From: Parcubacteria group bacterium Gr01-1014_29
GTDB taxonomy: Bacteria > Patescibacteriota > Minisyncoccia > Ryanbacterales > 2-02-FULL-48-12
Direction: 5' to 3'
NCBI GenBank assembly: GCA_007376195.1
Contig: VMFT01000009.1
Span: 11,067-75,066, forward strand
DNA length: 64,000 bases
The stretch's first letter is position 1; the number at the start of each line of letters is the position of its first letter. The position numbers were made by a program. This document shows, piece by piece, positions 60,001 to 63,000 of the stretch.

Positions 60001-63000
60001 GTTTTGCAAAAAATTTCTGGTGGGCTAAGAAGTTTATTTTTTCGTTCTCGCAAGCGCCGTTTGATTTTATAACACGCGTTGCCGTTTGGCTCGCGGTGCT
60101 TTTGCCATTTGTAGTTGCCACATTGCTTATACTCGCGTTTTTAGAGACCATTTCTTGGTTTGCTGCACTTGTCTCTTCGGCGGCCGCGTGCGTGCTGGTG
60201 CTCCAGACAGTCGCATTGTCATTTTTGGGCGAGTCGGTCAGTATTATGTTTGATGAAGTAAAACAACGCCCGAAGTATGTTATTGAAGAGAAAATCAATC
60301 TCTAAGCTCTTACAGGAGTTGCTCTTTTTCTTGGATCATTGATAATATATATGATAGATGTGAGGGGATCACATTTAAAAAGGTCGCGAGAAAAAGATGA
60401 TCATATTAATTAAAAATAACCCCCCACTATGTTAATTTCAAAATATCTCTATAATGCAAAGAACATCTATCTGGGTATAGTATCCCTTGTATTGATCGCG
60501 ATAGCTATTAACTTGGCGTTTGCGAATACCACAAATCAAATAGTACCTACTTCTGATGGAGCGTACCGTGAATGGAATCCCACCAGTGGTACTGTTCACC
60601 GCTACATGATAGACGAGACGCCTTGTAATGGTACGACGGATTATAATTGGACAACCACTGTAGGAAAGCGGGATTCATATGGAGTAAGTCTTTATAGTGT
60701 TCCGAATGGTTCTCTCATTACCGCAATCGAAATAGCTCCCTGTGCCTCGCGCAACAACACAGGGGGAGGATCTTCGGTGATGAATGTATTTTATAGGTAT
60801 AACGGCGTAGATAGCTCCAATTTAGGAAATTATTCGTTGACTGGTATTACTCCAGCCGAGCTTACACCGGTAAGTTTTGGAGGGCTCTCACTTGTGAAAA
60901 GCGCGTCGAGCGCGCTTCAAATAGGCGCAGTGCTTACTTCCGGCAATAAAGGAGCGCGCTTGAGCCGTATCGCGGCGACCATTACCTATACGCCATTAAG
61001 CGCGCCATCAAATATTGATGCGGTAAACACATCGAGTACACAAAATGATTTAAGTTGGGCAGATAATTCATCCATAGAAGATGGTTTCAGGGTTGAGCGA
61101 AGTCTTAATGGCCAATTCGGACCCTTTACGGAAATTGCTTCTACGTCTGCCGGTGTGATCTCCTACAGTGATAGCGGTCTTGTGGCAGATCAAACGTATT
61201 ATTATCGTGTGCGTGCCTATAATGTAGGTGGATTTTCCTCTTATTCCAATACAGATTATGCGATAACGGCTACAGTATTTCCCAGCGATCCAACTGATCT
61301 TGCCGGAACCGCGTCTTCTACATCTACACATCTCAACTGGATGGACACTTCATCGAATGAAGAAGGGTTCTCGATAGAGCGAAGCGTTGATGGTACAAAT
61401 TTTTCAGTAGTTGCCTCAACAATGCCCAATGCTGTATCTCATGAAGATACGAATCTTTCATCCGGAACGTATTATTATCGTATCAACGCATTTAATACGG
61501 TCGGCTACTCTGGATACGCAAACACTGTAAGTGTCACGGTGCCATAAGTATGTAGATAGTGGTATGCAAAAACAGCCCTATATTGGCGCTTCAGACGCTA
61601 GCTCTTTCTTTTTTAGGAGAGTCGGTCAGTATTATGTTTGATGAGGTAAAACAGCGCCCGAAGTATGTGATTGAAGAAAAAATAAATTTGTAGTTTGGGC
61701 ATTGTAGGCAAATATGAGCTATCAAGCAAGTAAATTTATGTTATCCACACGCATGTTGACATCTTTATGGTACATGTACTATTGTACGGGTATACACGCC
61801 CCAGCCAGCCGTAAGGTCCGCTGGGGTTTTCTGTTGTTATCTTGATATGGTAGCATTTGACTATAAGATTTATATTGTGGAGAGGTGTGTAAATTGCAAT
61901 CAATTGATTAAAAAGCAGAAAAAAGAAACTCTGCTTTTTATAGACGGAGAAAATTTTAAACATAAAATAAGCAATGTTTATACAGAACACAGAAAACAAA
62001 AACCGGAATGGCATACATATAATTTTAAGGGATTACTCGATAATGTTTTAACAGGCTTCGATAGAGATAGGACAATTTTTTATTTTGCGAAAATAAAAGA
62101 GCACTCGGAAACTAAGGAGAAATCAAGACAATTGATTGAAGCGCAACGCTTATTAAAAACAAGTTTAGAGCGCCAAGGATTTACAATTGTTCTTGCGGGA
62201 GGGGTGCGGGGGCAACGAGAGGGAAATTCATCGAATTCAGTTGTTGTTTTTAGAGAAAAAGGTGTAGACGTGCGAATGGGTGTTGATATGGTTTCTTCGG
62301 CTTGTGATGAAAGGGCATCAACTATTATACTCGGGAGTTCCGATTCAGATTTGCAGCCAGCCGTGAAGGAAACCTCTAAGCGGGGAGTAGGATGTGTGTA
62401 TCTAGGTTTCGAAACCAATCCAAATAAGGGGCTGTCTTTTACTTGTAAACGGACGATTCTTATTCGAGATTCTGAAGTTTTAGAATTTGGTTAGCAATTA
62501 CACCCCGATATTTCGCGGCGCAGGTTCCTTGCCCCCTAATGAAGAAAAGCGAATGAAAATTTGTATTCCTGTGCTATCTTCCCTCCCGGGAGAGAATCAC
62601 CCAGATTGTCTTTAGCGCAATGTTGAGGTCGAGGGCAATCGATCTGTTTTTTATATAATAGAGGTCGTATTGTAGTTTTTGCATGGCATCTTCCACGGAT
62701 GCGCCATAAGGAAAGTTAATCTGCGCCCAACCGGAAAGCCCCGGCCGCACCAAGTGCCGGATGTCATAAAATGGCAGTTCACTTTTTAGCATCTCGATAA
62801 ATTCCGGCCGCTCCGGGCGCGGCCCGATAAAACTCATCTCCCCGTTGAATATATTGATAAGCTGCGGTAGCTCATCAAAACGTGTTTTTCTCAAAAAAGA
62901 GCCTACGCGTGTGATTCGTATGTCATGTTCCTGTGCCCATTGCGCGTTTCCTATCTCCTCGGCTAAGCCATTGGGGCCAGAAACTATCATGGAGCGAAAT

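Follow-up and report, generated by a model that had tools for sequence, protein, structure and literature searches.

Why is the 3′ end of a glycosyltransferase gene found twice, the second time without its gene, in a cell-surface glycan locus of Parcubacteria group bacterium Gr01-1014_29? The stretch in question, here called the window, comprises 64,000 nucleotides (nt) of contig VMFT01000009.1 (assembly GCA_007376195.1), and all coordinates are positions within it. An intact gene of glycosyltransferase family 2 (GT2) is followed by a gene for a protein with an FN3 domain and then by a short remnant of a second GT2, hereafter the relic. We read the relic as the displaced 3′ tail of another lineage's copy of the same single-copy GtrB-type glycosyltransferase, with a probability of about 0.72. 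Whichever version of its left-hand junction is true, the relic in the window is real and truncated. The features on which this reading rests are as follows.

59364–60305, + strand: intact gene for a predicted GtrB-type polyprenyl-phosphate glycosyltransferase, 313 amino acids (aa) (PF00535, E=5e-31)
60429–61547, + strand: gene for an FN3-domain surface or secreted protein, 372 aa, with an N-terminal hydrophobic anchor (PF00041)
61548–61583, + strand: 3′ flank of the FN3 gene, in which 61568–61583 supplies the left arm and loop of a terminator that is a perfect 28-nt palindrome
61583–61584, no strand: junction, read in the window as CCCTATAT/TGGCGCTTCAG (CCCTATAT/TGGCGC), the slash marking the joint, with one shared T as microhomology
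61583–61693, + strand: relic 3′ end of a second GtrB-type GT2, 36 homologous codons and a TAG stop

The relic and its intact counterpart

The relic aligns collinearly and in frame with the final 36 codons and the stop of the GT2 gene at 59364–60305, where its counterpart is 60195–60305 (111 nt). The FN3 gene sits between the two, and the gap from the FN3 stop codon, which ends at 61547, to the relic is 35 nt; the coordinates and the gap given in the original prediction were confirmed. The pair was recovered by a repeat finder as a direct repeat (60196–60304 and 61584–61692; 83% identity, spacing 1388 nt), by blastn as a match of 84.6% over 104 nt (E=1e-28), and by tblastn of the GT2 protein against the window as a match at 61556–61690 (E=3e-16). 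No further sequence in the 64-kb window resembled the relic by blastn or tblastn. A 313-aa open reading frame (ORF) at 25245 was considered as an alternative source of the relic and ruled out as unrelated in sequence.

Codons of the relic and of the intact GT2 were compared after alignment from their stops. The last 30 codons specify the same residues with 13 nucleotide differences, 9 of which fall within the last 27 codons. The earlier count of 27 identical residues, with about 9 synonymous differences in 78 nt, was thus a correct subset of a longer stretch. The stops differ (TAA in the intact gene, TAG in the relic), and amino-acid changes, counted from the stop, occur at codon 31 (V>L) and codon 35 (V>A). 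In an alignment with Synechocystis GtrB (5EKP), the relic corresponds to residues 278–313 of the intact GT2, with 34/36 identical. When 13 substitutions were placed at random in 30 codons, the peptide was left unchanged in none of 200,000 simulations.

GT2 homology ends sharply at 61583. Similarity upstream of this point is random, an in-frame TAG lies at 61553, and the 37th codon (61580–61582) belongs to the FN3 flank and not to GT2, leaving a homologous stretch of only 36 codons. A 44-codon ORF with a GTG start (61559–61693) encloses the relic, which spans the end of transmembrane (TM) helix 2 and the conserved C-terminal motif LGE..EVKQRPKY, lacks the catalytic domain and has only half of the TM hairpin. 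PF00535 was found neither in the relic nor in the 72-codon version of the tail described below, and neither gave any Pfam match. Because this GT-A catalytic domain is absent, the relic cannot be an enzyme, and nothing in the sequence of the 36-codon form indicates any other function.

What kind of enzyme did the tail belong to? Residues 8–309 of the intact GT2 align with Synechocystis GtrB (E=2e-57), C-terminal motif included, and match ArnC more weakly. Two C-terminal TM helices are followed by the conserved LGE..EVK.RP.Y tail. By these similarities the intact GT2 is assigned as a GtrB-type polyprenyl-phosphate glycosyltransferase. Its sugar specificity is left unnamed because every NCBIfam equivalog cut-off was missed (PgfS, 213.9 bits against 500; ArnC, 118.8 against 529). 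Its NCBI product name (TSC79498.1, "NAD-dependent epimerase/dehydratase") looks misassigned, the Pfam match being Glycos_transf_2.

Orthologs of the GT2 at 78–86% identity are found in Candidatus Ryanbacteria genomes and in groundwater metagenomes. The final ~30 residues are near-invariant across 20 orthologs (..LSFLGES.SI.FDEVKQRPKYVIEEKIN[LF]), one of which, P0003, shares the QTLAL variant of the relic, and the LGE..EVK.RP.Y motif is kept even in the cyanobacterial enzyme. Since the tail is near-invariant in orthologs and its motif is shared this widely, the relic covers the most constrained part of the protein. Conservation of the motif out to cyanobacteria likewise accounts for the synonymous-only pattern of differences.

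The degree of divergence indicates how the two tails are related. Relic and intact tail are 82% identical over 111 nt; against the tails of other lineages the relic is 78–82% identical and the intact tail 78–83%. The 72-codon tail shows 69–72% nucleotide identity to every sampled ortholog, the intact GT2 included. Between the 72-codon tail and the intact GT2, synonymous divergence (dS) is saturated at 1.3–2.3, and the ratio of nonsynonymous to synonymous divergence (omega) is 0.02–0.08, indistinguishable from ortholog-ortholog pairs. Judged from these values, the two split about as deeply as separate Ryanbacteria-like lineages, each evolving as a working gene. This bears out the claim that the fragment is the tail of a once-functional, separately evolving GT2 under purifying selection whose body was lost. 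Saturated dS with omega at the ortholog level rules out a recent tandem duplication in situ, and therefore the relic is read as the tail of a displaced ortholog or allele and not as that of a decayed resident paralog. An artefact of assembly collapse of the 59364 gene, which the original prediction had kept in view, is excluded because the two are just 82–85% identical; moreover, the same tail is 100% identical in an independent contig (k139_89642).

Single-copy synteny in a mosaic glycan locus

Did two GT2 genes of this type ever stand side by side at this position? Ten related loci were compared (L003, L015, L083–L089 and L138; L003 and L088 are two copies of one contig). GT2 of this type occurs once per locus in all 10, and none of the 10 has a complete second GT2 at this position, a second GT2 tail downstream of GT2, or an FN3 or NYN gene there. 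What lies behind GT2 varies. In L083, L084, L085 and L138, the GT2 stop is followed after ~20 nt by the stop of a convergent polyprenyl glycosylphosphotransferase. The slot is occupied by a pseudopilin-like gene in L087, by genes for two secreted proteins, one with PG_binding_1 domains, in L015/L089, and by still other genes in L003/L088 and in L086. Because its content differs among related loci, the gap behind GT2 is best described as a variable slot, which tends to hold surface-protein genes. GT2 of this type is single copy at this position.

These loci bear directly on the idea, contained in the original prediction, that a resident tandem GT2 paralog once worked here and later lost its body, for example to insertion of the FN3 gene. 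The purifying-selection signature, the in-frame tail and the direct-repeat geometry around the FN3 gene would all fit such a history. Against it stands the lack of two GT2 of this type at the position in any related locus: L003/L088 do carry an additional GT2, but it is 47% identical and lies upstream of DegT. Furthermore, tail and intact gene are as distant as lineages are from each other, yet their last 30 residues are identical and there is no sign of specialisation. A resident paralog is thus improbable, and the term does not fit what was found. Displacement of another lineage's ortholog or allele accounts for the tail more economically.

The FN3 protein itself belongs, at 55–63% identity, to a large family in the candidate phyla radiation (CPR) that is spread over unrelated genomic contexts. 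In the three contexts inspected, the surroundings of FN3 homologs were unrelated to GT2, and none was flanked by a GT2 tail. The NCBI product name of this protein too (TSC79499.1, "VCBS repeat-containing protein") looks misassigned, the Pfam match being fn3.

The locus as a whole can be called a gene-by-gene mosaic because the nearest relative changes from gene to gene, as seen in the best matches among the related loci:

Third epimerase: L083, 71%
Transketolase halves: L083, 72–81%
DegT: L003, 84%
GT2: L083, 86% (L015, 71%)
Sugar transferase: L015, 70% (L083, 56%)
First Wzy_C protein: L085, 75%

The affinities of the GT2 and of the sugar transferase are therefore discordant. Variable content of the slot and mosaicism agree with the description of this position as prone to recombination. 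It is not, as had been proposed, the edge of an island: the glycan locus runs at least 9 kb further downstream, through a sugar transferase, two Wzy_C proteins, UDP-glucose dehydrogenase and an epimerase, and the relic site is an internal junction.

Upstream in the same locus, transketolase is split into two genes, one for the N-terminal and one for the pyrimidine/C-terminal half (56282–58120), flanked by three tandem epimerase/dehydratase paralogs (53348–56234) and a DegT aminotransferase. This set of genes suggests an unusual modified-sugar pathway.

The junction and the possible course of the exchange

Where does the foreign tail begin? In the window, the 5′ breakpoint of homology maps to 61583, the point at which the original prediction expected it; a second assembly argues that this breakpoint is not the primary one. 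ENA assembly ERZ27284378 is probably from the same sample series as the metagenome-assembled genome (MAG) to which the window belongs, because one of its genes is identical to a gene of the sister MAG Gr01-1014_66. One of its contigs, L001 (k139_312969, 75,264 bp), differs from the window by 1 mismatch in 8.2 kb and terminates exactly at 61583, which suggests that the assembly graph branches or ends there. Another, L163 (k139_89642, 16,161 bp), matches the window from 61583 on with 1 mismatch in 2.4 kb and carries an identical relic. Upstream of 61583, L163 holds 121 nt more than the window, namely the right arm of the FN3 terminator and its T-tract, both missing from the window, and 36 GT2 codons.

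The tail in L163 is an uninterrupted 72-codon ATG ORF (MISLLLPFIITTVLILAYLGTVSWFAGLASVAVAFVLALQTLALSFLGES...KINL and stop) that begins directly behind the T-tract of the complete FN3-flank terminator, with the GT2 body absent. At this joint, no extended homology was found and no likeness to GT2 sequence upstream of the tail start. The window's left arm (61568–61583) is the exact reverse complement of L163 nt 41–56, and the hybrid AAAAACAGCCCTATATAGGGCTGTTTTT is a perfect 28-nt palindrome. Because the two arms together rebuild the full palindrome, followed by the 72-codon tail, the primary joint would be the FN3 terminator against GT2 codon ~242, and the window's breakpoint at 61583 would be secondary. 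The possibility that the fragment belongs to a longer intact ORF is thereby answered in part: a longer ORF exists in L163, but it is still only a truncated tail.

Two accounts can be given of the missing 121 nt. If 61583/61584 is an assembly join, then the true structure is that of L163 (flank, full hairpin, 72-codon tail), and the relic stays real while the breakpoint at 61583 and the length of 36 codons become artefacts. This account draws on the exact stop of L001 at 61583, on the extra 121 nt in a contig that is the same as the window from there on, and on the probable origin of both contigs in the same sample series. On the other hand, the two sides share 1 nt only, leaving no overlap for an assembler to mis-join; the loop of a perfect palindrome (28 nt) is a biologically plausible starting point for a deletion; and the first 44 nt of L163 differ from the window at four sites, suggesting a separate strain variant. 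Since so short an overlap gives the assembler little cause for a false join and deletions may plausibly concentrate at palindromes, we lean towards a real secondary deletion polymorphism that starts in the palindrome loop, and we hold the assembly join to be a tentative alternative that deserves to be taken seriously.

Neither the 44-aa ORF nor the FN3 protein of the window, when looked up, gave a record of a third assembly of the junction, and the second member of the FN3 protein cluster is the NCBI copy of the same protein. A Logan contig (L002, SRR8863434), which covers 57468–61011 and is identical to the window, represents a third assembly of the upstream part and breaks inside the FN3 gene at 61011. 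This break may reflect strain variation or internal repeats of the FN3 gene (61193–61223 and 61466–61496, 77%).

To the right of the relic lie the following features.

61694–61846, + strand: spacer of 153 nt behind the relic, with an intrinsic terminator (stem 61798–61827, U-tract to ~61839)
61847–62494, + strand: NYN-domain gene (PF01936; 37% GC, window 46.6%)
62574–63959, − strand: convergent polyprenyl glycosylphosphotransferase gene (Bac_transf; PF02397, TIGR03025)

The terminator at 61798–61839 (dG −20.4 kcal/mol, z=−2.9) probably comes from the lost GT2 gene or operon. Nothing similar to the spacer was found in any relative, and no Rfam match was obtained for it or elsewhere in 60250–62000. 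A terminator-like site at 61583–61601 was dismissed as chance (3 such sites against 1.8 expected; fold z=0.2). The NYN gene has the lowest GC of the neighbourhood, and tblastn gave no match to it at this position in any related locus; it was likely acquired separately or came in with the relic tail. The best promoter-like site of the region, TTGACA-18-TATTGT (61756–61785), directly precedes the terminator hairpin, which is followed by the NYN start at 61847. This order could be an attenuator-like arrangement or coincidence.

The homology, the selection pattern, the single-copy synteny in relatives, the mosaicism and both junction versions are observations; from them we infer a recombination whose mechanism, direction and recency would be as follows. 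A stretch of DNA in the mosaic glycan locus would have been swapped with that of a diverged relative, one end recombining in homologous sequence and the other joining illegitimately. The product would be an intact GT2, the FN3 gene and the FN3 terminator abutting codon ~242 of the other GT2, of which the 72-codon tail, its own spacer with terminator, and the NYN gene would be left over. The tail would have diverged while the gene to which it belonged still worked in its lineage of origin, the truncation being too recent for damage to have accumulated. In the window version, a further 121 nt, made up of the FN3 terminator's right half and 36 codons of the tail, would then have gone, by secondary deletion or assembly join. 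Such a course corresponds to homology-facilitated illegitimate recombination (HFIR). In that process foreign DNA is anchored by homology at one end only; the other end joins illegitimately, with loss of resident sequence, and the gene at that joint stays behind in truncated form (PMC3240628; PMC5361080). An illegitimate joint is what was found here, with no homology in L163 and 1 nt shared in the window.

The exchange could have run either way. In one direction, a segment ending in GT2, FN3 and terminator may have come in and displaced the resident locus as far as codon ~242 of its GT2; in the other, the incoming segment may have started inside a foreign GT2, continued with tail, spacer and NYN, and taken the place of the resident sequence downstream of FN3. 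GT2 and sugar transferase have discordant affinities and the NYN region is low in GC; both fit a boundary at this point and would suit either direction.

There is a hint that scars of this sort recur. An aquifer contig holds another, independent truncated tail of this GT2 family, at L165:229–534 (ENA ERZ1292641, Hainich H51). It comprises ~100 codons starting ..GFAKNFWWVKKF.. (..FAKNFWW..), and the gene whose stop it immediately follows is unrelated and without a Pfam or NCBIfam match.

Could the FN3 gene instead have arrived as a site-specific cassette? A cassette made up of a donor GT2 tail, the FN3 gene and a terminator might have entered the 3′ part of GT2 and restored its frame, leaving the native tail downstream. 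Direct repeats of a gene 3′ end flanking an inserted gene would be expected from this, and the many unrelated contexts of FN3 homologs are what a mobile gene might show. However, the FN3 gene alone lies between the repeats: a Pfam scan of the window found no integrase or recombinase at the relic site, between the repeats or beside them. The repeat boundaries have no identical core, the sequences differing where homology starts, and a GT2 tail stands beside none of the other FN3 homologs inspected. ARAGORN found no tRNA or tmRNA gene in the entire 64-kb window. Among viral contigs, none encodes an FN3 relative and none contains the exact tail sequence. We consider a cassette of this kind highly improbable.

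The L163 version also raises the question of whether the tail is expressed and functional, either as a free microprotein with two TM helices on the GtrB tetramer or, in L163, as a C-terminal membrane anchor fused to the FN3 protein. In L163 the 72-codon ATG ORF is uninterrupted, the conserved motif is wholly intact, and the FN3 stop TAA reads TCA; no stop interrupts the frame between the final FN3 codons and the tail, hairpin included. If the fusion is real, a membrane anchor, and perhaps with it a GtrB-interaction module, has passed from a glycosyltransferase to an extracellular FN3 protein. Yet L163 shows just two FN3 codons, too few to verify a fusion, and by our estimate chance alone would give an open in-frame linker of 18 codons in about one case in 7. 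The window version has the tail in a different frame from the FN3 gene, which ends in TAA, and half of the tail is dispensable there. The free tail matches no Pfam family, and there is no post-truncation divergence on which selection could be tested. A functional tail is accordingly very unlikely.

Displacement of another lineage's ortholog remains the preferred reading, and several observations weigh against it. The window's junction at 61583/61584 is not reproduced in the second assembly. L163 nt 1–44 match window 61540–61583 at 40/44 positions, with clustered mismatches at 61546, 61557, 61564 and 61573; because of these four differences, there are at least two strain variants or else errors at the contig end. 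Scans of genomes and metagenomes for a full-length GT2 with the exact tail of the relic found none, and no relative closer than 86%. GT2-spacer-NYN and GT2-FN3 adjacency were likewise found in no genome, so that neither parent arrangement is documented. A protein search with the 72-aa tail returned its own ORF and L165, a weak negative, as only three candidates were scored. Sliding-window identity along GT2 gave no left-hand crossover. L165 is a 569-nt contig with a coverage of 1 and could be chimeric. Finally, we know of no experimental study of recombination pathways in CPR bacteria.

If displacement is correct, the relic is direct physical evidence of allele or cassette replacement within a cell-surface glycan locus of a groundwater CPR bacterium, with one endpoint of the exchange fixed to the base. 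To our knowledge, recombination in CPR has so far mostly been inferred and not observed as scars. The 121-nt difference between assemblies means that the site may be structurally polymorphic within one groundwater population, and it calls for caution in the annotation and assembly of MAG Gr01-1014_29 at junction 61583. Neither a new kind of element nor a new mechanism is revealed.

Elsewhere in the window, long ORFs on the same strand overlap by hundreds of nt in two pairs (25245–26186 with 25825–26868, and 30322–31584 with 31392–32651). These could be frameshifted genes or alternative ORF calls.

Comparison with known systems

How does the relic compare with scars of known origin? Integrative elements that insert at gene 3′ ends and duplicate the attachment site produce a similar geometry, in that direct repeats of the 3′ end bracket the insert and the upstream copy keeps the gene intact. 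The present locus differs from these elements in having no integrase and no shared core, in repeats that are 70–85% identical rather than near-identical, and in an insert that consists of a single 1.1-kb gene.

Closer in architecture is the "C-terminal displacement" of Rhs, contact-dependent inhibition (CDI) and type VI secretion system (T6SS) loci, in which an intact gene is followed by new DNA and then by the shifted-back 3′ end of the previous allele, as described in PMC5361080, which cites Jackson et al. 2009. For T6SS and Rhs loci, HFIR has been invoked as the explanation of such 3′ ends and of orphan genes as well (PMC5361080). In those loci, the displaced tips are different toxin domains that come with cognate immunity genes and are kept in re-usable arrays, whereas here there is one copy of the tail, its last 30 residues are the same as in the current gene, and the next gene is NYN and not an immunity gene.

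The footprint of HFIR agrees with the relic in its main elements, namely homology-anchored foreign DNA, a non-homologous joint at the other end, deletion of resident sequence and a truncated gene (PMC3240628; PMC5361080). Here, the joint lies directly behind the T-tract of a terminator or, in the window version, shares 1 nt of microhomology. Two differences are that experimental demonstrations of HFIR come only from Streptococcus, Acinetobacter, Pseudomonas and E. coli, not from CPR, and that no homologous anchor or parental sequence was found for the present locus.

The most general likeness is to O-antigen and capsule loci. As in those, a mosaic sugar locus in which the nearest relative shifts per gene contains a truncated glycosyltransferase that marks a past exchange; in contrast with them, the host is a Ryanbacteria-like CPR bacterium and the inserted neighbours are FN3 and NYN genes rather than insertion sequence elements. 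Gene remnants occur where loci for O-antigen, capsule and other surface polysaccharides have recombined. A remnant at a recombination joint of such a locus is thus of a well-known kind, and the relic is a new, clean instance of it in a CPR bacterium.

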